The translations under genes were made by a program, and so were the position numbers. Source: Alphaproteobacteria bacterium (lineage in GTDB: Bacteria; Pseudomonadota; Alphaproteobacteria; JAEULC01). Taken from it: a stretch of 64,000 nt of DNA. The stretch covers positions 74,907 to 138,906 of the forward strand of contig JAKLKW010000001.1 in NCBI GenBank assembly GCA_023150455.1, given 5' to 3'. The notes under the pieces are model-generated. The model was not told the DNA's origin, did not search any database, and saw nothing but the letters and a program-made list of their open reading frames with translations. This document shows positions 27,871 to 55,091 of the stretch, in pieces. Every line of letters starts with the position of its first letter. Positions within the stretch are counted from its first letter, which is position 1.

Positions 27871-28824
27871 ATGACGGCCAAGGTATTCGCGTCGCAGGGC
27901 GACCTCGCGGCGAAGCAGGAGAAATTCGTCAAGCTGGCGGACAACGCCTACTGCCTGACGGCCGAAGGCGACCCGAATACGGGCATCATCATCGGCAACG
28001 ACGGCGTCATGGTGATCGACACGCGCGCCACGCCGGCCATGGCCGAGGACGTCATCCGCCATGTCCGCGCCGTCACCGACAAGCCGTTCAAGTACGTGCT
28101 GCTCACGCACTACCACGCCGTCCGGGTCATGGGCGCCTCGGCCTACAAGGCCGACTACGTCATCGCGAGCCAGGGCACCTACGAGCTGATCAAGGAGCGC
28201 GGCAAGCAGGACTTCGACAGCGAGGTGCAGCGCTTCCCGCGCCTGTTCCGCTCGGTCGAGTCGGTGCCGGGCCTCACCCGGCCGAACCTGGTGTTCGAGA
28301 ACGCGCTGACCCTGTGGATGGGCAAGACCGAGGTGCAGATCAGGCATATCGGCAAGGGCCACTCCAAGGGCGACACGATCGCCTGGCTGCCGCAGGAGCG
28401 CGTGATGTTCGCCGGCGACCTGGTGGAGGAAGGCACGACGCCCTATTGCGGCGATGCCTATCTCAAGGAATGGCCGGCGACGCTGGAGAAGCTGCGCGGC
28501 TTCAAGCCGGAGATGCTGGTGCCCGGCCGCGGCGATGCGATGATGACCGCCGAGGCCAGCGACAGGGCGATCGCCGCTACCGCCGGCTTCCTGCGCGACA
28601 TGCGCAGCGCGGTGGAGGCCGGCGTCAAGGCGGGCAAGGACCTGAAGGCGGTGTTCGAGGAGACGTCGCGCAGGCTGCAGCCGAGATACGGCCGGTGGGT
28701 CATTTTCGAGCACTGCCTGCCGTTCAACATCTCGCGCTGCTACGACGAGGTTTCCGGCATCACCGACCCGCGCATCTGGACGGCCGAGCGCGACATCGAG
28801 ATGTGGAAGGCGCTGCAGGGGTAG
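27871..28824 (+). CDS. MBL-fold metallo-hydrolase
   Basis: Metallo-beta-lactamase-like motif LLTHYHAVRVMG and downstream His/Asp ligand candidates (GKGHSKGDT); 317 aa. Confidence 0.75.
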   Translation: MTAKVFASQGDLAAKQEKFVKLADNAYCLTAEGDPNTGIIIGNDGVMVIDTRATPAMAEDVIRHVRAVTDKPFKYVLLTHYHAVRVMGASAYKADYVIASQGTYELIKERGKQDFDSEVQRFPRLFRSVESVPGLTRPNLVFENALTLWMGKTEVQIRHIGKGHSKGDTIAWLPQERVMFAGDLVEEGTTPYCGDAYLKEWPATLEKLRGFKPEMLVPGRGDAMMTAEASDRAIAATAGFLRDMRSAVEAGVKAGKDLKAVFEETSRRLQPRYGRWVIFEHCLPFNISRCYDEVSGITDPRIWTAERDIEMWKALQG

Positions 28825-28841
28825 GGCGCGTGGCCGACCTG

Positions 28842-30032
28842 ATGCGGGGCCTGCGGGTCCTCGACCTCACCAACGTGCTGGCCGGTCCGTTCTGCTGCTT
28901 CCAGCTCGCGCAGCTGGGGGCCGAGGTGATCAAGGTCGAGGTGCCCGAGACGGGCGACCTCGCGCGTGAGCTGGGCGCGGCGCCCGAGCTCAACCGACGC
29001 AGGATGGGCGCATCGTTCCTGGCGCAGAATGCCGGCAAGCGCTCGATCACCATCAACCTGAAGGACGGGAAGGGGAAGGAGATCTTCCGCCGTCTGGCCG
29101 CAACGGCCGACGCGGTGGTGGAGAATTTCCGTCCCGGCGTGATGGAGCGGCTCGGCCTCGGCTACGATGCGCTGGCGCGCATCAAGCCCGACCTGGTCTA
29201 TTGCGCCATCTCCGGCTTCGGGCAGGACGGGCCCTTGCGCGACAACCCGGCCTACGACCAGATCATCCAGGGCTTCTCCGGCGTCATGAGCGTCACGGGC
29301 GACGCCCGGAGCGCGCCGTTGCGCGTGGGCTATCCGGTCGCCGACACGATGGGCGGCATCACGGCGGCCTTCGCCATCGCCGCCGCGCTGCTGAAGCGCG
29401 AGCGCACCGGAAAGGGCGAGTTCATCGACGTGTCGATGCTCGAGGCCACGCTGGTGGCGATGGGCTGGGCGGTGTCGAACTGGCTGATCGCCGGCGTGAA
29501 GGGCGAGCCGATGGGTAACGAGAACGTGACGGCAAGCCCGTCCGGCACCTTCGCGACCGGCCATGGCCCCCTGAACATCGCCGCCAACAAGCAGGCGCAG
29601 TTCGAGAGGCTGTGCAACGTCATCGGCCGGCCCGAGCTGATCGCGGATCCGCGCTTCGCCCATCGCGAGGATCGCCTCGTCAACCGCGCGGCGCTGAAGG
29701 CGGAGATCGAGAATGGCCTCCAGCGCGATTCCGCGCGCAACTGGGCCGAGCTCCTGAACCGCCACGACGTGCCGGCGGGCGAGGTGCTCTCGGTGCCGGA
29801 GGTGCTGGAGCACGCGCAGGTGCGCGAGCGTGGTTTCATCAAGCGCTTCGACACGGTTACGGGCGTCGACCGGCCCGTCGCCATGGTGCGCGCCGGCTTC
29901 AAGCTTGGGAGCGGCGATCCCGCGCCCGAGCTGCCGCCGCCGCCGCTCGGCGCCGATACCGACGCCATCCTCGGTTCGCTCGGCTACTCGGGCGACGAGA
30001 TCGCCGCCTTCAGGGCCGACAAGACCATCTGA
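28842..30032 (+). CDS. Family III CoA-transferase (CaiB/BaiF/Frc family)
   Basis: N-terminal LRVLDLTNVLAGPFCCFQLAQLGAEVIKVE, and NFRPGVMERLGLGYD with catalytic-Asp region; 396 aa. Start ATG 28842 (GTG 28830 is an alternative). Confidence 0.85.
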   Translation: MRGLRVLDLTNVLAGPFCCFQLAQLGAEVIKVEVPETGDLARELGAAPELNRRRMGASFLAQNAGKRSITINLKDGKGKEIFRRLAATADAVVENFRPGVMERLGLGYDALARIKPDLVYCAISGFGQDGPLRDNPAYDQIIQGFSGVMSVTGDARSAPLRVGYPVADTMGGITAAFAIAAALLKRERTGKGEFIDVSMLEATLVAMGWAVSNWLIAGVKGEPMGNENVTASPSGTFATGHGPLNIAANKQAQFERLCNVIGRPELIADPRFAHREDRLVNRAALKAEIENGLQRDSARNWAELLNRHDVPAGEVLSVPEVLEHAQVRERGFIKRFDTVTGVDRPVAMVRAGFKLGSGDPAPELPPPPLGADTDAILGSLGYSGDEIAAFRADKTI

Positions 30033-30070
30033 CGTCTCGCCCGGCTGCCTCGCCACGAAAGGGCTCTGCC

Positions 30071-30883
30071 ATGGACACGCGCAACGCCGCCGAGGACTGG
30101 TGGCGCACCTCGATCATCGAGATGCGCCCGAACGTCATCCGCTTCCGCGGCTACCCGATCGAGGAGCTGATCGGCAATGTCGGCTTCCCCGGCATGATCT
30201 GGCTGATGCTGAGGGGCGAGCTGCCGACCCAGGCGCAGGCAGACCTGCTGGGCGCGGCGATGGTCGCGGGCGTCGATCACGGACCGCAGGCGCCGTCGAT
30301 CGCCATCGCCCGCATGGCGATCACCTGCGGCGTCGGCATCAACGGCGCCATGGCCTCGGCCGCCAACGTGCTGGGCGACGTGCACGGCGGCGCCGGCGAG
30401 CAGGCGCTCGCGCTCTACGAGCGGGTGCTGCGGCGCCAGGCCGAAGGGGCGTCGCTCGAGGATGCCGCCGCGGCGGAGCTCGATGCGCTGGCCGCGCGCG
30501 GGGTCGCGCACGTGCCCGGCTTCGGCCATCGCTTCCACACCGAGGACCCGCGGCCGCCGCGCATGTTCGAGCTGATCGACCGCGCCGTCGCCGCAGGCGC
30601 CGTTTCCGGCAAGGTCGCTGCCGCCGCGCGGGCGATCGACGCCGCGCTGGCGCGCAAGAAAGGCAGGCGCATCACCATGAACATCGACGGCGCGACGGCG
30701 GCGGTCTATGGCGAGCTGGGCTTCCCCGCGCCGCTCGCGCGCGGCCTGTTCGTTCTGTCGCGCTCGGTCGGCATCCTGGCGCATGCCTGGGAACAGTCGC
30801 AGCAGGGCGGCCGCAACAAGGGCCCGATCCCGCGCGAGTGCCTATGGACCTATGACGGGCCCACGTTGCGCCACGTGGAGTAG
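30071..30883 (+). CDS. Citryl-CoA lyase-like / citrate-synthase-fold small protein (about 270 aa)
   Basis: Citrate-synthase-like C-terminal domain residues (..VPGFGHRFHTEDPR.., ..MNIDGATAAVY..). Confidence 0.65.
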   Translation: MDTRNAAEDWWRTSIIEMRPNVIRFRGYPIEELIGNVGFPGMIWLMLRGELPTQAQADLLGAAMVAGVDHGPQAPSIAIARMAITCGVGINGAMASAANVLGDVHGGAGEQALALYERVLRRQAEGASLEDAAAAELDALAARGVAHVPGFGHRFHTEDPRPPRMFELIDRAVAAGAVSGKVAAAARAIDAALARKKGRRITMNIDGATAAVYGELGFPAPLARGLFVLSRSVGILAHAWEQSQQGGRNKGPIPRECLWTYDGPTLRHVE

Positions 30884-30918
30884 CGACCCTCGCCCGCCTG
30901 CGACGAGCACGGGGAAAA

Positions 30919-33090
30919 TCACGCCGGCTTCATCACCCTGAACCGCGCATCCCCGTCGCGCTCGATCTGCGGGACGAGCGCGACCTCCCAGGTCAGGTAC
31001 TCGCGCATCTTCTGCTCGGGCGCGCCGCGGTTCTCGTAGGGCTTGTACCAGACGTCCTCCGGCGGGTCGGCCCATTGCTCGTCGCCGGCCTCGAGCCGGT
31101 GGCCGGCGGCGCGCCAGGCCTCGGTGCCGCCGTCGAGCACCAGCACCTTGCGCGCCGTCCTGGGCGCGAGGTCGCGCGCGGCGAACCGCGCGAGCGTGCC
31201 GTCGGGCGAGGCCAGCACGATCGGGCCGTCGCCCGGCAGGCTGGCGACGGTGTCGCCGAGCCGCGCGCGAATTACGAACCAGGCGCCGGGAATATGCGCC
31301 GCGCGGTACCTGAGGCTCGTGTCCAGGTCGACGACGGTCACGCGGCCGAGCTGCCGGTCGAGATCGTCGGCCGCGATCGTCGCGACCGCGGCGTCGTCGC
31401 CCAGCACGGTCGCCTTCTCCGGACCCTTCTCGAGCTTCTGCCCGTCCAGCGCCTTGTCTAGCACGTAGACCTCGCGCCAGCCCATCTGGATCAGCCAGGA
31501 CGCCGTCATGACGGCGCGCACCGCCTCGCCGTCGATCAACACGAGTCGCGCGTTCAGCGTGCCGACATACTGGTCGGTCGCCTGCACCAGCTGGCCGCCC
31601 GGCGCCGAGCGGCTGCCCGGCAGGTGGCCGGCCTCGTACTCGGCCGGGCTGCGCACGTCGAGCACGTAGAGGGAATGCCTGTCCGCCTCGGCGCGGAAGC
31701 GCGCGAGGGCGGCATGGTCGATGCGTCGCACGCCGAAGCGCCCGGCCACGCTCCGGGCCGCTGCCTGCGCGCGCTCGAGGCCCTCGGGTCCCGGCGCCGG
31801 GGCGTGCTGCGTCTTGCCGTGGTCCAGCTTCAGCCCGGCGAGGTGCCAGCCCATCGTGCCGTTCTTCAGCGCCATGACCTTGTTGGGCAGCCCGGCGTTG
31901 ACCAGCGACTGCGTGCCGATGATGCTGCGTGTCCTGCCGGCGCAGTTCACCACGACCAGCGTCTCGGGCGACTTCACCAGGTCGAAAGCGCGGTAGACCA
32001 GCTCGGCGCCCGGGCAGTCGATGCCGCCGGGGATGCTCATGCGCCGGTACTCCTCCAGCGGCCGGCTGTCGAGGATGACGATGTCCTCGCCGCGGTCGAG
32101 CCGCGCCTTGAGCTCGGTCGGCTCGATGCGCGGTGTGCCGCATTTGTGCTCGACGATCTCGCCGAAGGCCTTGCTCGGCACGTTGACGCCGCTGAACAGC
32201 TCGTAGCCCGCCTTCTGCCAGCCGCGCACGCCGCCCTTGAGAACGGCGATGTTCTTGTAGCCGAGGTCGAACAGGCGATAGGCGGCGCGCTGCGCCAGGG
32301 CGCCGCCGTCCTCGTCGACCACGACCACGCGCGTCGCTCGCCGCGGCACCAGCGCGTCGGCGCGCAGCTCCAGGTGGCTCACCGGCAGCGGCACGGCGAA
32401 CAGCAGGTGCTCGCTCGCGAATACGCCCTCCTCGCGCACGTCCAGGATCGCAAGCTCCCCGCCGTCGCGGATCATGGCCTTGAGGGCCTGTGGCGTGACC
32501 TCGGGCGTCGAGATGTTGGGGCTGGCCGGGAAGATCTTGTAGGCGCCGCCCTCGGACGTCGCGAAGCTGATGCGCTCGGGCAGGTGCTCCAGGCTGCGGC
32601 CATAGAGATGCAGGTGCAGCGCCTTCTCGTTTCCCAGCACCTCGATCGTGTGAAAGTCGTCGGGCAGGAACGACACGGCGTTGCCCTTGACCACGGTCAG
32701 CTCGCCGGTCTTGCGGAGGCGGCCCTCGCCCGGCACCGAGCGGTTGTCGATGCGCTCGTAGAAGACGTTGTGCTCCTTGCCGTAGACGCCGGCGATCACG
32801 GCCCAGGTCGTGTGGTTGTGCGGCGGCTGCGCCTTGCCCGGCAATCCCGCCGACGCGTAGAGGGCGAAGCGGTGATCGGCGTCCTCGGCCAGGCGGAAGA
32901 TGCGGCCATGGCTGCCGTCGAACACCTGGAACTGCTCGGGCGGGAACAGCTCGGTGCGCGAGGCGAGATCGATCAGCACGGGCTTGATCCGCGCCAGTGC
33001 CGCCTGCGTGACGCCGTCCTCCTGCTCGATGCGGCGCACCTTGGCGATCGTGTCGGCGACGGCCTGATGGCGGGCATCCATGGTCGACAT
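30919..33090 (-). CDS. Fusion protein: cysteine-dioxygenase-type (3-His) cupin thiol dioxygenase domain followed by four tandem rhodanese modules (only the second has the catalytic Cys loop)
   Basis: N-terminal cupin with PHNHTTWAVIAGVYG...H in FLPDDFHTIEV (CDO/3-mercaptopropionate-dioxygenase-like H-x-H...H triad). Four rhodanese-like modules: LDVREEGVFASEHL (loop VVVDEDGG, Asp), LDSRPLEEYRRMSIPGG (loop VVVNCAGRTRS, Cys), LDVRSPAEYEAGHLPGS (loop LVLIDGEAV, no Cys), VVDLDTSLRYRAAHIPG (loop IVLASPDGT, no Cys). Start at ATG 33090 (33081 also possible; 33189 would overlap tctA). Confidence 0.8.
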   Translation of the reverse strand: MSTMDARHQAVADTIAKVRRIEQEDGVTQAALARIKPVLIDLASRTELFPPEQFQVFDGSHGRIFRLAEDADHRFALYASAGLPGKAQPPHNHTTWAVIAGVYGKEHNVFYERIDNRSVPGEGRLRKTGELTVVKGNAVSFLPDDFHTIEVLGNEKALHLHLYGRSLEHLPERISFATSEGGAYKIFPASPNISTPEVTPQALKAMIRDGGELAILDVREEGVFASEHLLFAVPLPVSHLELRADALVPRRATRVVVVDEDGGALAQRAAYRLFDLGYKNIAVLKGGVRGWQKAGYELFSGVNVPSKAFGEIVEHKCGTPRIEPTELKARLDRGEDIVILDSRPLEEYRRMSIPGGIDCPGAELVYRAFDLVKSPETLVVVNCAGRTRSIIGTQSLVNAGLPNKVMALKNGTMGWHLAGLKLDHGKTQHAPAPGPEGLERAQAAARSVAGRFGVRRIDHAALARFRAEADRHSLYVLDVRSPAEYEAGHLPGSRSAPGGQLVQATDQYVGTLNARLVLIDGEAVRAVMTASWLIQMGWREVYVLDKALDGQKLEKGPEKATVLGDDAAVATIAADDLDRQLGRVTVVDLDTSLRYRAAHIPGAWFVIRARLGDTVASLPGDGPIVLASPDGTLARFAARDLAPRTARKVLVLDGGTEAWRAAGHRLEAGDEQWADPPEDVWYKPYENRGAPEQKMREYLTWEVALVPQIERDGDARFRVMKPA

Positions 33091-33160
33091 GGCCGGTATT
33101 CCTGCGGCTGGAAGTGGAGACCGAAGTGTGGCGCAAATCGGCCGGGGTGGCAAAGAGGGC

Positions 33161-34642
33161 CTAGCGTGCCCGCAGCCGCCGCCAACCATGCGCCAGGGCC
33201 GGCGCGCTGAGGCCCAAGATCGTCAGCGCGAACAGCAGCACCACGATCGGGCGCGACAGGAACAGCAGCCAGTTCTGGTCGAAGATCAGCAGCGACTGCT
33301 TGAACGTCTCCTCGACCATGCGTCCCAGCACCAGGCCCATGATCAGCGGCGCGGGCGAGAAGCCGAAGCGGCGGAACAGCAGGCCGAGCACGCCGAAGAC
33401 CAGCATCGTGCCGACGTCGAACATCGACTGGTTCGGCGCATAGGCGCCGACGACCGACAGCACGAACACGCCGGGCCACAGATAGGCCGGCGGGATCAGC
33501 GTCACGCGCGCGAACAGCTTGGCGGCGCCGAGGCCGAGCACGAGATAGAGCAGGTTGGCCGCCAGCATCGAGGCGAACACGACATAGAGCAGGGTCGGCT
33601 GCTCGTTGAACAGGTGGGGGCCTGGGCGCACGCCCTGCACGATCAGCCCGACCAGGATGATGGCGGTCGTGGCGCTGCCGGGGATGCCGAGCGCCAGCGT
33701 CGGCACCATGGCGCCGCCGACCGCGGCGTTGTTGGCGGCCTCGGGGCCCGCGACGCCCTCGATCGCGCCGCGGCCGAACTCGAGCTTGTGCTTCGACCAG
33801 CGCCGGCTCTCGTTGTAGCAGATCATGGCGGCCGTGGTGGCGCCCAGCGCCGGCAGCGTGCCGATGAAGGTACCGATGCCGCTCGACAGGATGATCGCCT
33901 TTGCGCATTTGCGGAAATCGGCCAGGCTCGGCAGTTTCACCGCGCTCAGCTTGATGTATTCCTTCACCACGTTGCCGTGCGCGGCCTGCTCCAGCAACTC
34001 GGCCATGGCGAACAGGCCGATCAGCACGGGGATGAACTCGATCCCGTCGCTCAAGGCGTAGATGCCGAAGGTGAAGCGCTCGACGCCCGTGGTCAGGTCG
34101 AGTCCGACGGTGGCCAGCAGCACGCCGAAGGCGGCCGACAGCAGGTTCCTGGTCGGCGAGTCGCCGCCGATCGCCGCCACCATCGACAGGCCGAACACGG
34201 CGAGCGCGAAGTATTCGGGCGGGCCGAAATTATAGGCGGCGCGCGCCAGCAGCGGCGCGGCGACGATCAGCACGAACACGCTGAAGATCCCGCCGATGGC
34301 GCTGGAGATCGCGGAAATGCCGAGCGCCTTGCCCGCTTCGCCGCGCGCTGCCATCGGGTAGCCGTCGAATGCGGTGGCGGAGGCCGACGGGTCGCCCGGG
34401 GCGTTGATCAGGATCGCCGTGATCGAGCCGCCGAAATTGGCCGCGCAGTAGATCGATCCGAGGAAGGCGAGCGCGCCGGTCGGCGGCATGGTGATCGTAA
34501 GGGGCAGCAGGAGCGCCGTCGTGGTGCTGCCGCTGATTCCGGGCAGCGCGCCGACGATGATGCCGAGCAGCGTGCCGGCGAACACGAGGAACAGCATGTA
34601 GGGATCGACGAGGATCCCCATGCCGGCGAGGAAGGCGTCCAT
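33161..34642 (-). CDS. tctA: Tripartite tricarboxylate transporter (TTT) large permease TctA
   Basis: 493-aa polytopic protein with typical TctA N-terminus (..VFAGTLLGIIVGALPGISGSTTTALLLPLT..) and duplicated structure. Confidence 0.9.
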   Translation of the reverse strand: MDAFLAGMGILVDPYMLFLVFAGTLLGIIVGALPGISGSTTTALLLPLTITMPPTGALAFLGSIYCAANFGGSITAILINAPGDPSASATAFDGYPMAARGEAGKALGISAISSAIGGIFSVFVLIVAAPLLARAAYNFGPPEYFALAVFGLSMVAAIGGDSPTRNLLSAAFGVLLATVGLDLTTGVERFTFGIYALSDGIEFIPVLIGLFAMAELLEQAAHGNVVKEYIKLSAVKLPSLADFRKCAKAIILSSGIGTFIGTLPALGATTAAMICYNESRRWSKHKLEFGRGAIEGVAGPEAANNAAVGGAMVPTLALGIPGSATTAIILVGLIVQGVRPGPHLFNEQPTLLYVVFASMLAANLLYLVLGLGAAKLFARVTLIPPAYLWPGVFVLSVVGAYAPNQSMFDVGTMLVFGVLGLLFRRFGFSPAPLIMGLVLGRMVEETFKQSLLIFDQNWLLFLSRPIVVLLFALTILGLSAPALAHGWRRLRAR

Positions 34643-34655
34643 CAGCCCGGCCTTT

Positions 34656-35153
34656 TCACGACCACAGCGCGCCGAGCATGCTGCGCGGGAAGCTCACGCC
34701 CACGAAGCGGACGAACAGCAGGTAGATCGCGGTGCACAAGGCTCCGGCGCTGAGCACGAGCGGCAGCAGCCGGCGCTCGCCCCACATCCGGCCCAGCCCG
34801 ACCAGGAGCAGGAACGAGGACGGGAACATGCCGATCAGCTCGACCGCGCCCATGAAGGCGAACAGCACGGCGCCGGTCGCCCACACGCGCGCCGGCAGCG
34901 GCGGCATCGGACCGAGCGGCGCGACGCCGACGCCGAGCGCGATCAGCAGCGACAGGATCGCCATGACGACGAGGACGAGTCGCGGAAACAGCTCGGCACC
35001 CAGCCCGCTCATCAGTGCCTCGGGCACGCTGTCGAAGGTGTAGGTCAGGCCATAGACGAGTGCCGAGAACGCCAGCGCCGAGAAGGCGACGACGCGGTCG
35101 ATCGCGCCCGGCGAGGGCGAGCCCCCGCCGGGCCGGCCGGACGATCCCGACAT
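34656..35153 (-). CDS. tctB: TTT small membrane subunit TctB
   Basis: 165 aa, 4 TM, located between tctC and tctA with 3- and 13-nt spacers. Confidence 0.75.
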   Translation of the reverse strand: MSGSSGRPGGGSPSPGAIDRVVAFSALAFSALVYGLTYTFDSVPEALMSGLGAELFPRLVLVVMAILSLLIALGVGVAPLGPMPPLPARVWATGAVLFAFMGAVELIGMFPSSFLLLVGLGRMWGERRLLPLVLSAGALCTAIYLLFVRFVGVSFPRSMLGALWS

Positions 35154-35156
35154 CGC

Positions 35157-36152
35157 CTACTTCAGGAGGCCGATCGACTTCAGCGCCTCGGCACCTTCGT
35201 TGTAGAAGGCGTCGAGCTGCGCCTGCCATTCCTTGCGCCCGACCACGCTGTCCGGCGACTGGCCGGAGCTCTCGATGTAGGACGCGTACATCTTGCCCTT
35301 CATCGCCTTGACCAGCCCTTCTTCCAGGGCCTTGAGGTTCTCTTCCGGCACGCCCTTCAGCGTCACGAAGCCGCGCACGGTCGAATAGCTGGCGTCGAGG
35401 CCGAGGTCCTTCGAGCACGGTACGTCGGGCAGGGGCCCCAGGCGCTTCGGCGCCAGCACCAGCAGCGGGCGCACGTCGCCCGACTTGATCTGTGAATCGG
35501 CCTCGGCGTAGTTCAGGATGCCGACGTCGACGTTGCCGCCGACGACGTTGATCACGATGTCGCCGCCGCCGCGGAACGGCACGACGGTCGGCTTCTCCTG
35601 ACCGGCCTTCTTGGCGAAACCCAGCACGGCCAGGTGGTCGACGCCGCCAAGCTGCGTGGCGCCGTATTTCATCGACTTCTTCTTGCCCGCCTCCAGGAAG
35701 TCCTTCGCCGTCTTGTACGGGCTGTTCTTGCCCGCCATCAGCACCTGCGGGTCGTCGGTCGCGCGCGCCAGGGCCACGATCTCGGCGTACTTCACCGGCG
35801 CCTTGCCCTGGATCATGGTCAACAGATGCGTCTGCGTGATCAGCATGATCGTGTAGCCGTCGCGCGGGCGGCTGTTGGCGTAGGCAAGCGCCGCGCCGCC
35901 GCTGCCGCCCACCTTGTTGACCACGGCCAGCTCGGTCTTGAACACGCCCGGCGCATGCACCATCATCATGCGCGCCGTGATGTCCGTGCCGCCGCCGACC
36001 CCGGCATGCGTCACCACCTCGATCGTCTTGGACGGGAACTTCTCCTGTGCCCGCAACGGGCTCCAGGCCAGCGCCGTCGTGGCTGCGGCGCCTGCGGCGA
36101 AGGCGCGGCGCGTGAGCGCGAGGCTGCGGTGGTCGGTGATCTTCCTGGTCAT
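35157..36152 (-). CDS. tctC: TTT periplasmic substrate-binding protein TctC (Tat signal RRAFAAGAAATTALA)
   Basis: Bug/TctC-family body (..VVNKVGGSGGAALAYA.., ..PFRGGGDIV..); perfect SD AAGGAGG 7 nt upstream of ATG 36152; the upstream part of the 610-aa ORF is read-through. Confidence 0.9.
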   Translation of the reverse strand: MTRKITDHRSLALTRRAFAAGAAATTALAWSPLRAQEKFPSKTIEVVTHAGVGGGTDITARMMMVHAPGVFKTELAVVNKVGGSGGAALAYANSRPRDGYTIMLITQTHLLTMIQGKAPVKYAEIVALARATDDPQVLMAGKNSPYKTAKDFLEAGKKKSMKYGATQLGGVDHLAVLGFAKKAGQEKPTVVPFRGGGDIVINVVGGNVDVGILNYAEADSQIKSGDVRPLLVLAPKRLGPLPDVPCSKDLGLDASYSTVRGFVTLKGVPEENLKALEEGLVKAMKGKMYASYIESSGQSPDSVVGRKEWQAQLDAFYNEGAEALKSIGLLK

Positions 36153-36193
36153 GGTCGTCTCCTCCTTGCTTTGTCTGTCTTGCCTGCGCCGGG

Positions 36194-36952
36194 TCACGCG
36201 CCGGCGGCAGCCTTGCGGCGGCGCGGCGCGGGTTGCGCCGGAGCCTGCTTGTCGTTGTCCAGGGTCTTCAAGAGCCGCGCCTTGCCCGCGAGGATATGCG
36301 CCTCCATCAGCGCCGCGGCGCGCTGCGGGTCGCGCGCGGCAAGCGCGTCCAGAATGGCGCGATGCTCGCGGTTGGAGATCCGCATGACGCCTTCCGACAC
36401 CAGGCCGCGGCGGCGGAACAGGTGCAGCTCCTTCGCCAGATTGCGGTAGGTCGCGGTCAGGTGCGCGTTGCCACAGAATTCCACCAGCGTGGAATGGTAT
36501 TCGACGTTGAGGGGGTAATAGGCGTCGATGTCTTCGACCGCCTTCTCCATCGCCTCGACCAGCGCGGTCAGGCGGGTAAGCTGCGCCGGGGTGATGCGCG
36601 CGGCCAGCGTGCGGCCGGCGAAGCCGAACAGCGCGCCGCGCAGGTCGTAGATGTCGAGCGCCTGCTGCAGGCCGATCTGGCGCACGAAGGTGCCGCGATT
36701 GACCTGCACCTCGACCAGCCCGCTCTGCTCCAGCCCGCGGCAGGCCTCGCGGATCGGTCCGCGGCTGACGCCCAGCCGCTCGGCCAGGGCGTTCTCGTTC
36801 AGGCGGTCGCCGGCCTGGAGCTCGCCCGTCACGATCATGCGCTCGAGCTCCTTGCGCACGAGCGAGGCGAGCGATTCCGTGCGCCTGATCTTCAGCGCCA
36901 GCGCGGTGTCGCCCCCCTCGTCCTTGGGCGTGCGATCGGCCTGCTCGTCCAT
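36194..36952 (-). CDS. GntR family transcriptional regulator (FadR/FCD subfamily)
   Basis: N-terminal wHTH (..LNENALAERLGVSRGPIREACRGLEQSGLVE..) plus C-terminal FCD-type helical domain; 252 aa. Confidence 0.85.
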   Translation of the reverse strand: MDEQADRTPKDEGGDTALALKIRRTESLASLVRKELERMIVTGELQAGDRLNENALAERLGVSRGPIREACRGLEQSGLVEVQVNRGTFVRQIGLQQALDIYDLRGALFGFAGRTLAARITPAQLTRLTALVEAMEKAVEDIDAYYPLNVEYHSTLVEFCGNAHLTATYRNLAKELHLFRRRGLVSEGVMRISNREHRAILDALAARDPQRAAALMEAHILAGKARLLKTLDNDKQAPAQPAPRRRKAAAGA

Positions 36953-37088
36953 CGAACCCTATCAGGCCGACGCGGTTGTGAATTGTCAACAGTTTTCACT
37001 TTGTCCAAACTCTGCTATCCGTCGCTGCTGCGCGCGCCCGCGCCTGAAGCTGCGGCGGGCCTACGCTTGGCTTAAGGTCCAGGGGTCC

Positions 37089-38288
37089 ATGATGCCGTTC
37101 CGTCCCGCCTCGTCCGCGCTCAAACGCTTCACCGTGCTCGACCTCACGCGCGTGCGGTCCGGCCCGACGGCGGTGCGGCAGCTGGCCGACTGGGGCGCCA
37201 ACGTCATCAAGATCGAGATGCCGGAAGGGCTCGAGCCGGGCGACGCGCCGGGCGGGCCGCGCCACGGCTCGGACTTCCAGAACCTGCACCGCAACAAGCG
37301 CAGCATGACGCTGAACCTGAAGTCGCCCGAGGGCGTCGAGATACTCAAGGCGATGGCCGGGAAGGCGGACGCGATCGTCGAGAACTTCCGCCCCGACGTG
37401 AAGACGCGGCTCGGCATCGACTACGAGGCGATGCGCGCGGTCAACCCGCGCATCGTCTACGGCAGCATCTCGGGCTTCGGCCAGGACGGGCCGTATCGCG
37501 ACCGGCCGGGCTTCGACCAGATCGCCCAGGGCATGGGCGGGCTGATGTGGATCACCGGCATGCCGGGGCAGGGACCGGTGCGCGTCGGCATCCCGATCGC
37601 CGACCTCACCGCCGGCATCTTCTGCGCCTACGGCATCGTCGTGGCGCTGCTCGAGCGCGAGGTGTCGGGCCAGGGCCAGTGGGTGCACACCTCGCTGCTG
37701 CAGGCGCAGATCTTCATGCTCGACTTCCAGGCCTCGCGCTGGCTGATGGACGGCGAGGTGCCGCCGCAGGCGGGCAACAACCATCCGACCAGCATCCCGA
37801 CCGGCGTGTTCAAGACCGCGGACGGCCACATCAACATCGCCGTCACCGGCCGCAAGATCTGGGAGCGGTTCTGCCACGCGATCGGCGCCGCCGACCTGAT
37901 CGACCACAAGGACTATGCGACTGCCGCCGACCGGTCGAAGAACCGCAACGCGCTCAATGCCGAGATCGAGAAGCGGCTCCAGGGCATGGGCAGCGACGCG
38001 GTGATCGAGAAGCTCAACGCCGCGGGCGTGCCCTGCGGACAGATCTACAAGATGGACCAGGTCTTCGCCGATCCGCAGGTCGAGCACCTGAAGACCTATG
38101 TCGAGATCGACTCGCCCGCCCGCGGCCCGGCCACCAGGTTCGTGGCCCAGCCGGTCCGGCTCGAGCGCACGCCGAGCTCGGGCCAGCTGCCGCCGCCCGG
38201 GATCGGCCAGCACACGGACGAGATCCTGCGCGAGTTCGGCTACGACGACGCGGCGATCGCCGGCTTCCGCCAGCGCCGCGTCGTCTGA
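37089..38288 (+). CDS. Family III CoA-transferase (second copy; CaiB/BaiF/Frc family)
   Basis: FTVLDLTRVRSGPTAVRQLADWGANVIKIE, ENFRPDVKTRLGIDYE; 399 aa; divergent from gntR. Confidence 0.85.
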   Translation: MMPFRPASSALKRFTVLDLTRVRSGPTAVRQLADWGANVIKIEMPEGLEPGDAPGGPRHGSDFQNLHRNKRSMTLNLKSPEGVEILKAMAGKADAIVENFRPDVKTRLGIDYEAMRAVNPRIVYGSISGFGQDGPYRDRPGFDQIAQGMGGLMWITGMPGQGPVRVGIPIADLTAGIFCAYGIVVALLEREVSGQGQWVHTSLLQAQIFMLDFQASRWLMDGEVPPQAGNNHPTSIPTGVFKTADGHINIAVTGRKIWERFCHAIGAADLIDHKDYATAADRSKNRNALNAEIEKRLQGMGSDAVIEKLNAAGVPCGQIYKMDQVFADPQVEHLKTYVEIDSPARGPATRFVAQPVRLERTPSSGQLPPPGIGQHTDEILREFGYDDAAIAGFRQRRVV

Positions 38289-38310
38289 CACGCTCAAAGG
38301 AGATAGGGAC

Positions 38311-39099
38311 ATGACGACGGAAAAGATGCTGGCGCGCAAGGACGGCGCCGTCGGCTGGATGAAGTTCAACAACCCCGAGCGGCACAATGCCGTGTCCCTC
38401 GAGATGTGGCGCGCGGCGGAGAAGATACTGTCCGACTTCGCCGAGGATCCGGCGGTGCGCGTCATCGCCATCACCGGCGCCGGCGGCAAGGCCTTCGTGT
38501 CGGGCGCCGACATCTCGAAGTTCGAGAGCGAGCGCGCCTCGATGGAGGCGGTCGAGCACTACAACAGGACGACCGCCCGCGTGTACAGCATGCTGAACGA
38601 CATCGGCAAGCCGACCATCGCCATGATCCGCGGCTACTGCATCGGCGGCGGTGTGGCGCTGGCCGTGTGCTGCGACCTGCGCATCTGCTCGGACAACTCG
38701 AAGTTCGGCGTGCCGGCGGCCAAGCTCGGGCTCGGCTATGCCCTGCCGGGCATCAAGCGGCTGGTCGACCTGGTCGGTCCTTCCTTCGCCAAGGAGATCT
38801 TCTTCACCGCCCGCCAGTTCTCGGCCGCGGAAGCGGCGGTGATGGGCCTCGTCAACCGGGTCGTGCCCGAGGCCGAGCTGCAGGACTACGTGCAGAACTA
38901 CGCCGACACGATCGCCGGCAACGCGCCGCTCACCGTATGCTCGGTCAAACGGATCGTCGGCGAGGCGCTGAAGGACGCCGAGCAGCGCGACGTCGCCCTG
39001 TGTGAGCGCCTGGTCAAGGAATGCTTCGGCAGCCAGGACTACATCGAGGGCCGCCGCGCCTTCATGGAGAAGCGCAAGCCTGCATTCGTCGGGCGGTAG
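38311..39099 (+). CDS. Enoyl-CoA hydratase/isomerase (crotonase) family protein
   Basis: Crotonase fold blocks (..ITGAGGKAFVSGADISKF.., ..IAMIRGYCIGGGVALAVCCDLRI..); 262 aa. Confidence 0.85.
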   Translation: MTTEKMLARKDGAVGWMKFNNPERHNAVSLEMWRAAEKILSDFAEDPAVRVIAITGAGGKAFVSGADISKFESERASMEAVEHYNRTTARVYSMLNDIGKPTIAMIRGYCIGGGVALAVCCDLRICSDNSKFGVPAAKLGLGYALPGIKRLVDLVGPSFAKEIFFTARQFSAAEAAVMGLVNRVVPEAELQDYVQNYADTIAGNAPLTVCSVKRIVGEALKDAEQRDVALCERLVKECFGSQDYIEGRRAFMEKRKPAFVGR

Positions 39100-39230: not shown

Positions 39231-41015
39231 ATGTCTGCCCCCGGAGGAACCATGCCCGTGCTTTCCACCGACACGACGACCGCGGCGCCGCAGGGGATCG
39301 CCTCGCTGAGGCCGACCATCGCGGCGCATGACCACATGGCGGTGGCCGGGCATTACGGCGCGGCGCATGCGGCCTTCCGCGTGCTCGAGGCAGGCGGCAA
39401 CGCGGTCGATGCCGGCGTCGCCGGCGGCATCGCGCTCGGGGTGCTGCAGAGCGACATCGTGAACGTGGCCGGCGTGGCGCCGATCCTGATCTACCTGGCC
39501 GAACGCGACGAGGTGGTGTCGATCGCCGGGCTCGGCACCTGGCCCGCCGCGGCCGATGTCGAGCGCTTCCGGCGCGAGTTCGGCGGCCATGTCCCGAGCG
39601 GCATCCTGCGCACCGTCGTGCCGGCGGCACCCGCCGCCTGGATCGCCGCGCTCGAGCGCTTCGGCACGATGAGCTTCGGCGAGGTCGCCGCGGCCGCGAT
39701 CCGCTTCGCGCGCGACGGCTTCGCGCTGCACCAGCTGATGGCCGAGATCATCGCCGAGCACGAGGCCGACTACCGCAAGCAGCCGGAGAAGGCGGCGATC
39801 TACCTGCCGGGCGGCCGTCCGCCCAGGGCCGGCGACAAGTTCGTGCAGGCCGACCTCGCGCGCACACTGCAGTTCATGGCCGACGAGGAGAGGAAGGCGG
39901 CCGGCAGGGGGCGCGCGGCGGGGCTCCAGGCCGCGCGCGACGCCTTCTACAAGGGAGACATCGCCCGGGCGATCGTCAAGCATCACCGCGCCAACGGCGG
40001 CTGGATGGAAGCGGCGGACCTCGCCGGCTTCGCTGCCGAGATCGAGCCGGCGGTGCGCGTGCGCTACAAGCAGTACGACGTCTTCACCTGCCCGGCCTGG
40101 TGCCAGGGCCCGGCCATGGCCCAGGCCTTCAAGCTGGTCGACGGCATCGACCTGCGCGGCCTCGGGCACAACTCGCCGGCCTACCTGCACGTCGTGGCCG
40201 AGGCGCTGAAGCTCGCCTTCGCCGACCGCGAGCGCTATTTCGGCGATCCGCGCTTCGTCGACGTGCCGGTCGCGCGCCTGCTGTCGGACGACTACATCCG
40301 CGCGCGGCGTGCCCTGATCCGTCCCGACCGCGCCTTCCCGGGCCTGCCGCCCGCGGGCGAGCTCGGCGGGCGTGGCGGCGCCGAGCCGCGGCCCTCGGCG
40401 GCGGCATCGCGGCCGGCGCTCGACACGTCCTATGTCTGCGTCGTCGACAAAGAGGGCAACGCCTTCTCGGCGACGCCGAGCGACAGCTCCTATGACGGCG
40501 AGGTGATCCCCGGCACCGGCCTGGTGCCGTCGACGCGCGGCAGCCAGAACTGGTGCGAGCCTTCGCATCCCTCGGTGGTGGCGCCCGGCAAGCGCCCGCG
40601 CCTGACGCCGAGCCCGGCGCTGGCGCTGGGCCGGCGCGGCCGCAAGGGCAGGGAGGTGCTTCCCTTCGGCACGCCGGGCGGCGACGTGCAGATCCAGGCC
40701 ATGCTGCAAACCTTCCTCAACCGCGTCGAGTTCGCCATGGAGCCGCAGCGCGCGGTCGAGCAGCCGCGCATCGCCACCTACAGCTTCCCGGACTCGTTCG
40801 AGCCGCACGGCTACCAGCCCGGAAGGCTCAACCTCGAGGCCCGCCTGCCGCGCGCCACAGGCGAGGCGCTCGCCGCCCTCGGCCACGACGTGCAGTGGTG
40901 GCCGCAGTGGATCTGGCGCGCCGGCGCCACCTGCCTGATCCACAGCGACCCCGACACCGGGCTGCTGTCCGCCGGCGCCGACCCGCGCCGCGCCTGCTAC
41001 GCGCTGGGGTGGTGA
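39231..41015 (+). CDS. Gamma-glutamyltransferase family protein (second GGT paralog, no signal peptide)
   Basis: N-terminal GGT block (..AGHYGAAHAAFRVLEAGGNAVDAGVAGG..) and nucleophile region RPALDTSYVCVVDKEGNAFSATPSD; 594 aa from ATG 39231. Confidence 0.8.
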   Translation: MSAPGGTMPVLSTDTTTAAPQGIASLRPTIAAHDHMAVAGHYGAAHAAFRVLEAGGNAVDAGVAGGIALGVLQSDIVNVAGVAPILIYLAERDEVVSIAGLGTWPAAADVERFRREFGGHVPSGILRTVVPAAPAAWIAALERFGTMSFGEVAAAAIRFARDGFALHQLMAEIIAEHEADYRKQPEKAAIYLPGGRPPRAGDKFVQADLARTLQFMADEERKAAGRGRAAGLQAARDAFYKGDIARAIVKHHRANGGWMEAADLAGFAAEIEPAVRVRYKQYDVFTCPAWCQGPAMAQAFKLVDGIDLRGLGHNSPAYLHVVAEALKLAFADRERYFGDPRFVDVPVARLLSDDYIRARRALIRPDRAFPGLPPAGELGGRGGAEPRPSAAASRPALDTSYVCVVDKEGNAFSATPSDSSYDGEVIPGTGLVPSTRGSQNWCEPSHPSVVAPGKRPRLTPSPALALGRRGRKGREVLPFGTPGGDVQIQAMLQTFLNRVEFAMEPQRAVEQPRIATYSFPDSFEPHGYQPGRLNLEARLPRATGEALAALGHDVQWWPQWIWRAGATCLIHSDPDTGLLSAGADPRRACYALGW

Positions 41016-41139
41016 AAGCAGCCTCGCGCCTGCCTGCGGCGGGCCAGGGTTGAACGGTTGAGCCGCCCGCCTTCCTCACCTAGGATGCGGCGGCGAGAAG
41101 CAACAACCGCCGGGGCAGGCGGGAGCAGGGGGCCTTTCC

Positions 41140-42081: not shown

Positions 42082-42085
42082 CGCC

Positions 42086-42957: not shown

Positions 42958-42961
<4 letters not shown>
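42086..42961 (+). CDS. ABC transporter permease, DppC/OppC-type
   Basis: 291 aa; GTG start; typical DppC body (..NWFGTDHLGRDLYSRVIYGSRVSL.., EAA region). Confidence 0.9.
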
Positions 42962-44018
<1,057 letters not shown>

Positions 44019-44022
<4 letters not shown>

Positions 44023-53520: not shown

Positions 53521-53528
53521 GGCGGACC

Positions 53529-55084: not shown

Positions 55085-55091
55085 TCCCCGG

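Follow-up and report, generated by a model that had tools for sequence, protein, structure and literature searches.

A juxtaposition, probably lineage-specific, of three separately conserved units around a dioxygenase-rhodanese fusion gene in an alphaproteobacterium

We analysed an 11-kb interval of CoA-transferase, transporter and thiol dioxygenase genes within a 64-kb window (the whole stretch of DNA under study). The interval is probably a lineage-specific juxtaposition of three units, each conserved separately elsewhere: a gntR-tctCBA operon divergent from a CoA-transferase and a crotonase (Unit A, 33161-39099), an operon for an MBL-fold hydrolase, a second CoA-transferase and a citryl-CoA lyase (Unit B, 27871-30883), and a dioxygenase-rhodanese fusion gene (Unit C, 30919-33090). 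Among about 200 related loci compared, the three modules sit together in one narrow bacterial lineage only. Because the units are conserved separately and Unit C would work without CoA activation, the CoA genes on its flanks are best explained as ordinary carboxylate catabolism genes and not as a dedicated sulfino-acid pathway.

Gene content of the interval

Gene boundaries were obtained by GC3 frame analysis and from deposited gene calls (GCA_026647135.1, JAPKHE010000007.1), which agree exactly; domains were assigned with Pfam and equivalogs with NCBIfam. All ten genes described in the earlier note were confirmed in content, coordinates and orientation (Table 1). The interval runs from the MBL start codon to the crotonase stop codon. 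The Unit B genes converge on the fusion gene, with 35 bp between the facing stop codons. On the other side, 136 bp of intergenic sequence separate gntR from the divergently oriented transferase 2 and crotonase genes.

Table 1. Features of the interval (window coordinates)
Feature	Position	Strand	Assignment
MBL-fold protein	27871-28824	+	PF00753; 317 aa
CoA-transferase III no. 1	28842-30032	+	PF02515, 407 bits; 396 aa
Citrate-synthase-fold lyase	30071-30883	+	PF00285; NCBIfam citryl-CoA lyase NF004864, 430 bits, cut-off 261; 270 aa
Cupin + four rhodanese domains fusion	30919-33090	-	four rhodanese Pfam matches; 723 aa
tctA	33161-34642	-	Pfam TctA
tctB	34656-35153	-	Pfam TctB
tctC	35157-36152	-	Pfam TctC
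GntR/FCD regulator	36194-36952	-	PF00392 + PF07729
Operator-like motif TTGTCAACA	36983..36991	+	in gntR/transferase-2 intergenic region
CoA-transferase III no. 2	37089-38288	+	PF02515, 381 bits; 399 aa
Crotonase	38311-39099	+	PF00378; NF004781, 390 bits vs cut-off 291; 262 aa

The window has no family-III CoA-transferases besides these two, which share 40% identity. Their presence within 11 kb is unremarkable in itself because related genomes carry a greatly enlarged complement of this family: Cupriavidus chromids hold up to 10-12 matching places each, and large paralogous families have been described (PMC2864759). Neither transferase scores above any NCBIfam equivalog cut-off, including those of the formyl-CoA, carnitine and mesaconate models, so the clustering with formyl-CoA or carnitine clades that the earlier note had named as evidence against its reading was not seen. 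No paper characterising the transferase-1/lyase or the transferase-2/crotonase pair was found in the literature.

Co-occurrence of the modules in related loci

The comparison sample comprised about 200 related loci (80 fusion-homologue loci, 80 transferase-2 loci and others), with plasmid records and complete replicons. The 80 fusion-homologue loci, of which 51 extend 3 kb or more to each side, contained no lyase, no MBL gene and no TctCBA or GntR at the level of orthologues; a single one (L020) carries transferase 2 together with the crotonase. Among the 80 transferase-2 loci neither a lyase nor an MBL gene was found, and the fusion gene occurs in one (L123); a crotonase orthologue is present in 52 of these loci, of which 28 extend 2.5 kb or more downstream, and the upstream sequence reaches 5 kb or more in 27 transferase-2 loci. 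About 35 contexts of the transferase-1/lyase pair showed no fusion gene, and in roughly 200 other loci this pair was never found with the transferase-2/crotonase pair. Where both occur in complete replicons, the distance between them is 25 kb to 1.4 Mb, or they are placed on different replicons.

The full arrangement was found only in L093 and L105 (fusion proteins 90% and 81% identical to that of the window). A further relative, L106 (fusion 82%), keeps the MBL gene and transferase 1 and has lost the lyase, and L007 (fusion 72%) has none of the flanking genes. In view of L106, transferase 1 may be independent of the lyase in the window clade. A second, different arrangement of fusion, transferase-2 and crotonase genes occurs in the Stellaceae-like loci L020 and L123, whose transferase genes share only 80% identity at the DNA level. 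This arrangement is more than we would expect of unrelated genes by chance, and is the one point favouring a sulfur link.

The earlier note had read the whole interval as compatible with one complete organosulfur-acid island. In such an island the TTT system would import a thiol acid, the fusion protein would oxidise it to a sulfinate, an Act-like transferase would activate the product, and the crotonase or lyase would finish the pathway. The genes are contiguous, their arrangement is retained in two relatives, tctCBA and the fusion gene probably share a transcript, and neither transferase falls within a characterised equivalog. The 3-mercaptopropionate route (Mdo, Act, AcdA) was described correctly (PMC6370202). 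Act belongs to the family-III transferases, and Variovorax and Advenella use TctC proteins and crotonases to break down thiodipropionate (PMC6370202, PMC5373536). Against these points stand the counts above, the loss of the lyase in L106, the occurrence of Unit A without the fusion gene, the lack of an operator copy upstream of the MBL gene and the chemistry of the dioxygenase (see below), and we consider a single island very unlikely. The part of the earlier claim that tied transferase 2 and the crotonase to gntR-tct is upheld by Roseomonas marmotae, locus L111 and the shared motif; the part that tied the lyase and MBL genes to the fusion gene finds no support in the fusion-homologue loci.

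The fusion gene and the gntR-tctCBA unit

The fusion gene encodes an Msdo-like thiol dioxygenase domain and four rhodanese domains. Its N-terminal 196 residues score 134 bits against mercaptosuccinate dioxygenase (8VNI) versus 29 bits against Mdo. The protein would turn a thiol acid into a sulfinate, which would shed sulfite without a CoA step; the Msdo product sulfinosuccinate decomposes spontaneously to succinate and sulfite (PMC5373536), so CoA activation is not required. No desulfinase of the acyl-CoA-dehydrogenase (AcdA) type adjoins either transferase, and the only acyl-CoA dehydrogenase in the window lies 22 kb off within a separate module. Both results speak against the sulfinate activation that had been proposed by analogy with the 3-mercaptopropionate route. 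The fusion family is large (proteins of about 722 residues) and its neighbours vary over the 80 loci, with two neighbour clusters (c9 and c23) matching the content of known msdo clusters, which include rhodanese and cystathionine beta-lyase genes (PMC5373536).

In the window lineage only, the fusion gene (Unit C) is the last gene of the gntR-tctCBA operon, attached at its 3' end. The 70-bp gap between tctA and the fusion gene contains no stable hairpin or predicted terminator; the fusion gene is therefore probably co-transcribed with the tct operon, and GntR would control it together with transferase 2 and the crotonase. Such common control would fit a shared substrate.

By several comparisons, the tripartite tricarboxylate transporter (TTT) groups with transferase 2 and the crotonase. 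Their divergent layout, with gntR first in the tct operon, recurs without the fusion gene in Roseomonas marmotae (L098) and in metagenome locus L111 (identities to the window of 73/75% for TctA, 56/65% for TctC, 50/46% for GntR, 68/69% for transferase 2 and 54/66% for the crotonase, respectively). In L098, L099, L100 and L111, GntR orthologues (40-50% identity) are transcribed divergently from the transferase-2 orthologues, and L101 has an FCD regulator nearby. Six lineages carry the operator-like motif TTGTCAACA in the corresponding intergenic region; the motif has a single exact copy in the window, and none upstream of the MBL gene. Layout, proteins and motif all recur in distant lineages.

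Transferase 2 has SUGCT as its nearest solved relative (235 bits). Its orthologues (59-71% identity) are directly followed by a crotonase orthologue in 43 of the 63 metagenome loci with room for one, and the adjacency recurs in many plasmids. The crotonase, which the earlier note called an enoyl-CoA hydratase, has Ala at both hydratase Glu positions; both glutamates are missing in 7/7 family members (Ala, Gly or Asn at the first position, always Ala at the second). A conserved Tyr, present in 7/7 orthologues, aligns with Tyr140 of methylmalonyl-CoA decarboxylase (MMCD), but the protein falls below the NCBIfam cut-off for that enzyme (162 bits vs 257). Because the Glu pair is absent and the Tyr140 equivalent is present, the crotonase appears decarboxylase-like, and a decarboxylase-type cycle seems more likely than hydration.

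A narrower sulfur reading confines thiol- or sulfino-dicarboxylate metabolism to the GntR regulon (tctCBA-fusion, transferase 2 and crotonase), with the crotonase removing sulfite from an alpha-sulfino acyl-CoA, by a reaction analogous to decarboxylation, to regenerate succinyl-CoA and Unit B unrelated. We regard it as no more probable than the single island. It would account for the operator-bearing intergenic region common to transferase 2/crotonase and the fusion-ending operon, for the two distinct ways in which the fusion gene is joined to crotonase/transferase 2 among Stellaceae-like lineages (one in the window clade, one in L020/L123), and for a crotonase that is no canonical hydratase and has the MMCD-type Tyr. 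However, among the 80 transferase-2 loci the fusion gene is present in L123 only, and no thiol dioxygenase gene was found in the annotated plasmid contexts of transferase 2/crotonase that were examined; the usual partner is an ABC or TTT transporter. In Roseivivax and Octadecabacter, GntR and malonyl-CoA synthase genes are divergent from transferase, crotonase and PaaI thioesterase genes, which points to malonate-type chemistry. We also know of no crotonase-fold desulfinase. The decomposition of sulfinosuccinate reportedly requires no enzyme (PMC5373536).

As ordinary carboxylate catabolism, Unit A would work as follows. The TTT system would import a di- or tricarboxylate, transferase 2 would form its CoA ester, and the Glu-less crotonase would act on the ester, probably decarboxylating a malonate-type ester instead of hydrating it. 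The product acyl-CoA would then give its CoA to the next substrate molecule, a logic like that of ScpB/ScpC or Frc/Oxc.

The transferase-1/lyase operon

The MBL gene is the first of its operon and adjoins transferase 1 also in L093, L105 and L106. Its product has HYHAVR where the HxHxDH motif is expected and PGRG in place of the usual late His. It belongs to the family of an uncharacterised PDB entry (8D2Z, 401 bits), and persulfide dioxygenases, which the earlier note had raised as a possible identity, are absent from its best 60 solved relatives; our guess is a hydrolase, lactonase or thioesterase. Elsewhere its orthologues (57-62% identity) neighbour IclR/VOC or FAD-oxidoreductase/DUF2783 genes and no CoA-transferases.

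Transferase 1 has 10uh, 4ED9, SUGCT and YfdE as its nearest solved relatives. Its orthologues (54-72% identity) lie directly beside a lyase orthologue in 20/26 plasmid records, which span Alpha-, Beta- and Gammaproteobacteria and Actinobacteria, and also in L087, L089 and L090 and in Comamonas, Telmatospirillum and Geminicoccaceae. The lyase, from a family about 70% identical over Alpha- and Betaproteobacteria, keeps the citrate synthase catalytic motifs: it scores 125 bits against Hydrogenobacter thermophilus Ccl (PDB 6HXP), with the HGGA, GFGHR..DPR, NxD and SRxxGxxAH motifs aligned. The usual company of the pair is IclR, citrate-type transporters or aconitase. TctCBA and a two-component sensor kinase/response regulator (TctDE-like by position) accompany it in Ruegeria, a DASS transporter in Methylobacterium and citryl-CoA-synthetase-like genes in Geminicoccaceae; CitMHS stands beside transferase-1-type modules in Comamonas and Roseomonas mucosa, and aconitase beside that of Cupriavidus necator pBB2. 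In R. mucosa an HMG-CoA-lyase-like gene stands where the lyase would be. TctC proteins beside transferase-1/lyase modules are only 25-31% identical to the window TctC.

On paper, the two CoA modules could be joined in a single route for an unsaturated tricarboxylate, for example aconitate, with transferase 2 making aconityl-CoA, the crotonase hydrating it to citryl-CoA and the lyase cleaving that. A TTT transporter, transferase, crotonase and citryl-CoA lyase all lie inside 11 kb, and aconitase genes adjoin transferase-1-like genes in two other loci. Nevertheless, the crotonase lacks the glutamates for this hydration, the two pairs keep apart in the loci surveyed, each has its own transferase, and no operator common to both modules was found; this is the least probable of the readings considered here.

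Taken as a separate unit, Unit B is probably a CoA-recycling analogue of citrate lyase. With acetyl- or succinyl-CoA as donor, transferase 1 would load CoA onto citrate or another 3-hydroxy-3-carboxy acid like it (the substrate is a guess), and the lyase would cleave the acyl-CoA. Cleavage would yield acetyl-CoA together with oxaloacetate or a comparable 2-oxo acid, and the CoA donor of transferase 1 would be regenerated from what the lyase releases. The net reaction would match that of citrate lyase, run with free CoA. Because the hydrolases found alongside the transferase-1/lyase pair differ between genomes and represent three folds, the true substrate of the pair may be an acid derived from a lactone and not citrate.

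Gene layout of the interval and the wider window

We picked genes in the window, which has a G+C content of ~70%, by third-position GC and set the start codons by hand. The picks are identical to the deposited gene calls of JAPKHE010000007.1 (MAG GCA_026647135.1), and all family assignments in the interval were upheld by Pfam and NCBIfam. Gaps of 17 and 38 bp separate the genes of the MBL/transferase 1/lyase operon, 22 bp separate transferase 2 from the crotonase gene, and the internal gaps of gntR-tctCBA are 3–41 bp. These gene calls, family matches and short gaps bear out the layout described in the earlier note. The fusion gene, which encodes an Msdo-like thiol dioxygenase (cupin) domain joined to four rhodanese domains, lies 70 bp past tctA with no terminator predicted between them, and probably shares the GntR-controlled transcript of the tct operon. 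Neither scans for promoters and terminators nor RNA folding was informative for the two key gaps, as expected at 70% GC.

Features of the interval and of other parts of the window
Feature	Position	Strand	Family support
Second gamma-glutamyltranspeptidase (GGT) paralogue	7596–9230
FAD oxidoreductase/folate-binding fusion	16839–19304
MBL-fold protein	27871–28824	+
CoA-transferase 1	28842–30032	+	Pfam, NCBIfam
Citrate-synthase-fold lyase	30071–30883	+	Pfam, NCBIfam
Cupin/four-rhodanese fusion	30919–33090	-	Pfam, NCBIfam
tctA, tctB, tctC	33161–36152	-	Pfam, NCBIfam
gntR	36194–36952	-	Pfam, NCBIfam
Operator-like motif, exact copy	36983–36991
CoA-transferase 2	37089–38288	+	Pfam, NCBIfam
Crotonase	38311–39099	+	Pfam, NCBIfam
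GGT/Dpp-type transporter operon	39231–45005
Family-5 binding protein	47984–49759
Purine catabolism cluster	49772–58272	-
Third CoA-dependent module	58282–62979
Enoyl-CoA hydratase (ECH) of third module	59763–60557
Acyl-CoA dehydrogenase of third module	61777–62979

The interval is flanked on the left by unrelated genes (a CBS-domain protein, an ICMT-family protein, a glycosyltransferase and LptF/G) and on the right by GGT and a Dpp-type ABC transporter. In the closest relative (locus L093) the crotonase and GGT genes have a TRAP transporter between them, indicating that the unit ends at the crotonase.

Several other modules were seen in the window. The GGT gene is followed by two Dpp-type permeases and two ATPases in an operon without a substrate-binding protein; a family-5 binding protein is encoded on the opposite strand, and a second GGT paralogue is 29% identical. 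The purine catabolism cluster comprises xanthine-dehydrogenase-type molybdenum and FAD/2Fe-2S subunits, an NMT1-type ABC transporter, an OHCU decarboxylase-HIUase fusion and a PuuD-type urate oxidase. The third CoA-dependent module, which runs toward the end of the window, has an MmgE/PrpD gene (- strand) divergent from genes for a canonical ECH, an HMG-CoA-lyase-like protein and an acyl-CoA dehydrogenase, and resembles branched C5-dicarboxylate or leucine-type clusters. The 821-aa FAD oxidoreductase fused to a glycine-cleavage-T-like folate-binding domain is of the dimethylglycine/sarcosine dehydrogenase type.

Placement of the transferases and the transferase 1/lyase pair

Both transferases match PF02515 (CoA_transf_3) over profile positions 2–366 of 366, transferase 1 with 407 bits and transferase 2 with 381 bits. 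The active-site Asp of family III (Asp169 in Frc) forms an acyl-aspartyl intermediate; the candidate for this residue in transferase 2, Asp172 in the IPIADL motif, is invariant in seven orthologues, and the equivalent in transferase 1, compared at the level of the motif, is YPVADT. The two proteins were placed by bit scores, model cut-offs and synteny. Both fall far below the NCBIfam equivalog cut-offs for SUGCT-type, YfdE, mesaconate, Frc, CaiB and Mct enzymes, with scores of 285–290 for SucGlut (SUGCT-type; cut-off 750), 248–256 for mesaconate (700), 212–267 for YfdE (522), 216–228 for Frc (504) and 119–146 for CaiB (413). Their nearest solved relatives are 10uh, 4ED9, SUGCT and YfdE (190–253 bits). 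The earlier note had named firm grouping of the transferases with itaconate, formyl-CoA or carnitine enzymes, together with independent expression of the flanking genes, as grounds against its organosulfur proposal; both transferases lie outside the formyl-CoA, carnitine and mesaconate groups. Each forms its own orthologous group, with 52–72% identity and a fixed partner gene; cross-identity is 35–43%.

The partner of transferase 1 is the lyase, whose family is ~70% identical between Alpha- and Betaproteobacteria. In Comamonas, Telmatospirillum and a Geminicoccaceae genome, a transferase 1 orthologue (62–72%) is followed directly by a lyase orthologue (67–72%), in the company of an IclR regulator and a carboxylate transporter (CitMHS with TctC, TRAP, or TTT). 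Among 26 plasmid and chromid records with a transferase 1-level match, 20 have the lyase gene within 200 bp (Cupriavidus, Azoarcus, Photobacterium, Caballeronia, Ralstonia, Methylobacterium, Bradyrhizobium, Diaphorobacter, Ruegeria, Rhodococcus, Nonomuraea and Streptomyces). In Ruegeria the pair follows a sensor kinase/response regulator pair (TctDE-like by position) and TctCBA, a DASS symporter lies near the pair in Methylobacterium, and an aconitase gene lies near transferase 1-type genes on Cupriavidus necator pBB2. The Geminicoccaceae locus, the only one with Ccs-like genes nearby, has citryl-CoA-synthetase-like genes near the pair. The genes around the pair point repeatedly to citrate-type substrates.

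At a Roseomonas mucosa locus (L187; NZ_CP025064.1, 2039–8951) a transferase 1 orthologue (61%) stands beside an HMG-CoA-lyase-like gene, which looks like a non-orthologous replacement of the citrate-synthase-fold lyase. This locus also contains an IclR gene, two TctC genes and a citrate:proton symporter.

The lyase scores 430 bits against the NCBIfam citryl-CoA lyase model NF004864 (cut-off 261; profile positions 9–276 of 278) and 125 bits against Hydrogenobacter thermophilus Ccl (PDB 6HXP). It is ~270 aa long with no N-terminal citrate synthase domain, and matches the C-terminal part only of Pfam Citrate_synt. Its VHGGAGE, PGFGHR..DPR, MNIDGA and LSRSVGILAH segments line up with motifs of 6HXP and 1VGM that we take to be the catalytic His/His/Asp and the oxaloacetate-binding Arg of citrate synthase. 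The short citrate-synthase fold and these His/His/Asp and Arg motifs are shared with Ccl, and the fold also with the CCL module of ATP-citrate lyase (6HXP, 6HXJ). Unlike Ccl, the lyase is partnered by a family-III CoA-transferase and not by the ATP-dependent citryl-CoA synthetase CcsAB, both in the window and in the 20 plasmid and chromid records. Lyases of this type occur in heterotrophs beside uptake transporters, which argues for the catabolic direction; CoA would be recycled with no ATP spent.

We infer that the simplest mechanism for the pair is that of a CoA-recycling citrate-lyase analogue. Transferase 1 would move CoA from acetyl- or succinyl-CoA onto citrate or a similar 3-hydroxy-3-carboxy acid, and the lyase would split the resulting acyl-CoA into acetyl-CoA and a 2-oxo acid. 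The proposed net reaction (citrate to acetate and oxaloacetate) would be that of citrate lyase CitDEF, a citrate:acetyl-ACP transferase combined with a citryl-ACP lyase, in which acyl transfer likewise precedes cleavage, an acetyl thioester is regenerated and citrate transporters are found nearby. The likeness is one of inferred mechanism and not of family: a family-III transferase and a citrate synthase fold are unrelated to CitF and CitE, and free CoA would take the place of the ACP prosthetic group. Literature searches for a characterised CoA-transferase and citryl-CoA lyase pair, for "citrate CoA-transferase" and for PDB 8D2Z returned nothing relevant; matches on Brucella BaaR and Cupriavidus necator itaconate concern other CoA modules.

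The MBL gene does not count among the conserved partners of the pair. Its product is ~60% identical to the uncharacterised protein in PDB 8D2Z. HYHAVR stands in place of the HxHxDH motif and PGRG in place of the late His; the second metal site therefore seems to be missing. A hydrolytic first step in the pathway of the pair is plausible because hydrolases of other folds (Amidohydro_2, SMP-30) accompany it elsewhere. The possibility raised earlier that the MBL protein is a persulfide dioxygenase (ETHE1/PDO-type) was rejected on the HYHAVR motif and the nearest relatives: no PDO is among the 60 best solved ones, which are headed by 8D2Z, class B beta-lactamases and chlorothalonil dehalogenase, and the best NCBIfam matches are SoxH-related and under cut-off.

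Transferase 2, the crotonase and gntR-tctCBA

Plasmids of Roseomonas, Roseivivax, Octadecabacter, Sphingobium, Comamonadaceae, Bradyrhizobium, Cupriavidus and Azospirillum carry transferase 2 orthologues (52–68%) followed by crotonase orthologues. Roseomonas marmotae has the layout of the window, with gntR-tctC-tctB-tctA divergent from the transferase and crotonase genes (identities of 73% for TctA, 56% for TctC, 50% for GntR, 68% for the transferase and 54% for the crotonase), and has an unrelated hypothetical gene after tctA instead of the fusion gene. A metagenome locus (L111) is a second case of this gntR-tct/transferase 2 layout. In Roseivivax and Octadecabacter, GntR and malonyl-CoA synthase genes diverge from genes for the transferase, the crotonase and a PaaI thioesterase, with a TTT system near.

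Scanning metagenomes with a transferase 2 alignment gave rise to 80 loci. A crotonase orthologue lies directly downstream in 43 of the 63 loci with room for one, and the usual companion is an ABC transporter. The fusion gene is present at a single locus (L123), and neither the lyase nor the MBL gene was found at any of the 80. The window TctC is 56–65% identical to the TctC proteins of transferase 2 units versus 25–31% to those beside transferase 1/lyase pairs, which assigns the TTT transporter to the transferase 2/crotonase unit. Transferase 2 and the crotonase belong with gntR-tctCBA, whether the fusion gene is present or absent.

The gntR/transferase 2 intergenic regions of six lineages have in common the sequence TTGTCAACA, of the FadR/GntR operator type; besides the window, Roseomonas, Roseivivax, Octadecabacter and two close relatives keep it in the equivalent region. 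Within the 64 kb of the window it occurs as an exact copy just once, between gntR and transferase 2. The region ahead of the MBL gene has no copy, just a 6-of-9 partial match (GTTGAC) that we treat as chance. The putative GntR operator provides a handle on the inducer of the TTT system, and hence on its substrate.

We aligned the crotonase with Metallosphaera 3-hydroxypropionyl-CoA dehydratase (5ZAI) and with the other ECH of the window, both of which keep the two catalytic Glu residues of a canonical enoyl-CoA hydratase. The window crotonase has Ala at both positions (GGGxE and PE motifs), and all seven orthologues lack both Glu, with Ala, Gly or Asn at the first position and always Ala at the second. 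The protein is thus not a canonical hydratase, which speaks against the hydration step of the earlier proposal. Members of the transferase-linked subfamily (NCBIfam PRK06127 type) are everywhere labelled 'enoyl-CoA hydratase', which, judged from the residues, is probably wrong. Glu-less crotonases were seen in the window and at loci L020, L093 and L098–L101.

All seven orthologues conserve a Tyr that lines up, with no gap in the alignment, with Tyr140 of Escherichia coli methylmalonyl-CoA decarboxylase (MMCD; PDB 1EF8). Against the MMCD model NF008506 the crotonase scores 162 bits, below the cut-off of 257, and is not a member. It would, on our working model, decarboxylate a malonate-type CoA ester, with CoA returned to new substrate as in ScpB/ScpC or Frc/Oxc. 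This model draws on the malonyl-CoA synthase neighbours, on the GntR regulator (compare MatR of the rhizobial mat operon) and on two genes being enough; we hold it tentatively and consider this specific chemistry less likely than not. Like E. coli ScpB/YgfG with ScpC, and like Frc/Oxc, the window genes would pair a CoA-transferase with an acyl-CoA decarboxylase and cycle CoA, and the crotonase shares with ScpB its fold and the Tyr140 equivalent. The differences from ScpB/ScpC are the score under the MMCD cut-off and the transferase, which is of family III in the window whereas ScpC is not. The carnitine enzymes CaiB and CaiD likewise form a two-gene unit in which a family-III transferase is followed by a crotonase-fold enzyme and CoA is recycled. 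Of the solved relatives of the two transferases, however, CaiB is more distant than any save racemases and Mct (68–102 bits), and CaiD keeps the hydratase glutamates that the window crotonase lacks.

The fusion gene and the proposed organosulfur island

The earlier note read the interval as one organosulfur-acid island. The fusion family consists of ~722-aa proteins in Stellaceae, Reyranella, other Rhodospirillales and Burkholderiales. A contig scan with a 14-member fusion alignment gave 80 loci (46–72% identity), which we probed by tblastn with eleven window proteins. The lyase, the MBL gene, GGT and TctB were found at none of the 80, and the matches to GntR, TctA and TctC did not rise above paralogue level (≤40% identity). 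One locus, L020, has orthologues of both transferase 2 (66%) and the crotonase (71%). Both flanks extend for 3 kb or more at 51 of the loci, which makes the negative result meaningful. The commonest neighbours are lineage-specific housekeeping genes (Reyranella); recurrent sulfur-related neighbours are a CDO-like cupin, a TauD-like dioxygenase, a cystathionine-beta-lyase-like (MetC-like) gene and stand-alone cupins.

The complete window arrangement is limited to L093 (fusion 90% identical) and L105 (81%). At locus L106 (82%; ENA ERZ27256989 k141_2168051) the citryl-CoA lyase gene is missing at 3074–3161 without remnants; still present there are tctA, the fusion gene, transferase 1 and the MBL gene. 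Locus L007 (72%) has none of the other genes of the interval. Where complete replicons carry a fusion-like gene and a CoA pair, the two are separated by 25 kb to 1.4 Mb or lie on separate replicons. The proposed island therefore resolves into three separately conserved modules that are joined only in a narrow clade, and the single-island model was rejected on the scan of the 80 fusion loci, in which CoA genes are not conserved save at L020. A single aconitate pathway through both CoA modules was also rejected, because the crotonase lacks the hydratase residues and the modules never co-occur among the roughly 200 other loci compared.

Compared by its first 196 residues, the fusion protein matches mercaptosuccinate dioxygenase (8VNI) with 134 bits over residues 2–185, and 3-mercaptopropionate dioxygenase (Mdo) with only 29 bits. 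With this match and four rhodanese domains, one polypeptide holds both the Msdo-like cupin and the rhodanese partner that are found in the msdo clusters of Variovorax paradoxus B4 and Advenella mimigardefordensis, where rhodanese and cystathionine-beta-lyase genes accompany msdo (PMC5373536). Fusion homologues elsewhere adjoin stand-alone cupins and beta-lyase genes, as in those clusters. Unlike them, the window cupin is fused to its four rhodanese domains behind a TTT operon, with no beta-lyase gene within 10 kb. The Msdo product, sulfinosuccinate, breaks down non-enzymatically to succinate and sulfite (PMC5373536; bioRxiv 10.64898/2026.05.19.726356), and the published pathway has no CoA-dependent step after the dioxygenase.

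Plasmid hits in Azospirillum, Burkholderia, Paraburkholderia, Ralstonia and Aminobacter (H144, H145, H148, H155, H161, H164 and H171) have the thiol dioxygenase and the multi-rhodanese protein annotated as separate neighbouring genes, so the fusion in the window unites a pre-existing gene pair.

[quoted passage not shown] The window resembles it in having family-III CoA-transferases that would act on dicarboxylate-like acids in a region that also has a thiol dioxygenase, TctC genes and crotonases (PMC6370202, PMC5373536). The reference synteny, with the desulfinase adjacent and mdo close (PMC6370202, PMC5373536), is absent: no such desulfinase flanks either transferase, the dioxygenase is Msdo-like and not Mdo-like, and the conserved partners of the transferases (lyase and crotonase) play no part in that route. 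The sole acyl-CoA dehydrogenase of the window lies in the separate MmgE/PrpD, ECH and HMG-lyase module. [quoted passage not shown]

At L020 (7725–13675) and L123 (2306–6047) the fusion gene is convergent on crotonase, transferase 2 and ABC transporter genes, an arrangement unlike that of the window and thus a second layout joining these genes. The two are related yet distinct Stellaceae-like genomes (transferase gene 80% identical in DNA). Two independent arrangements in one family hint that the fusion, transferase 2 and the crotonase may cooperate there. On this reading the Msdo-like/rhodanese fusion would have been recruited, in a Stellaceae-like lineage, into the GntR-controlled TTT/CoA-transferase/crotonase regulon; transferase 2 would load a sulfino-dicarboxylate (e.g. 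sulfinosuccinate) onto CoA, and the Glu-less crotonase with its MMCD-type Tyr would expel sulfite by chemistry analogous to decarboxylation and so regenerate succinyl-CoA. We regard this scheme as very improbable, and the broader claim of a sulfino-dicarboxylate as the substrate of transferase 2 and the crotonase in this lineage as scarcely less so. If true, it would provide a crotonase-fold CoA-ester desulfinase, a chemistry that to our knowledge is so far confined to the acyl-CoA dehydrogenase fold.

The CoA genes of the interval are ordinary, uncharacterised members of two carboxylate-catabolic cassettes, not of a sulfur pathway, and the case corrects an over-reading of gene adjacency. The two cassettes are very widespread in soil and aquatic Proteobacteria. 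Worth pursuing are the mis-annotated Glu-less crotonase subfamily and the transferase 1/lyase pair as a possible citrate-lyase analogue; the pair would be a two-protein, ATP-independent and ACP-free means of splitting citrate or a similar acid, distributed from Alphaproteobacteria to Actinobacteria.
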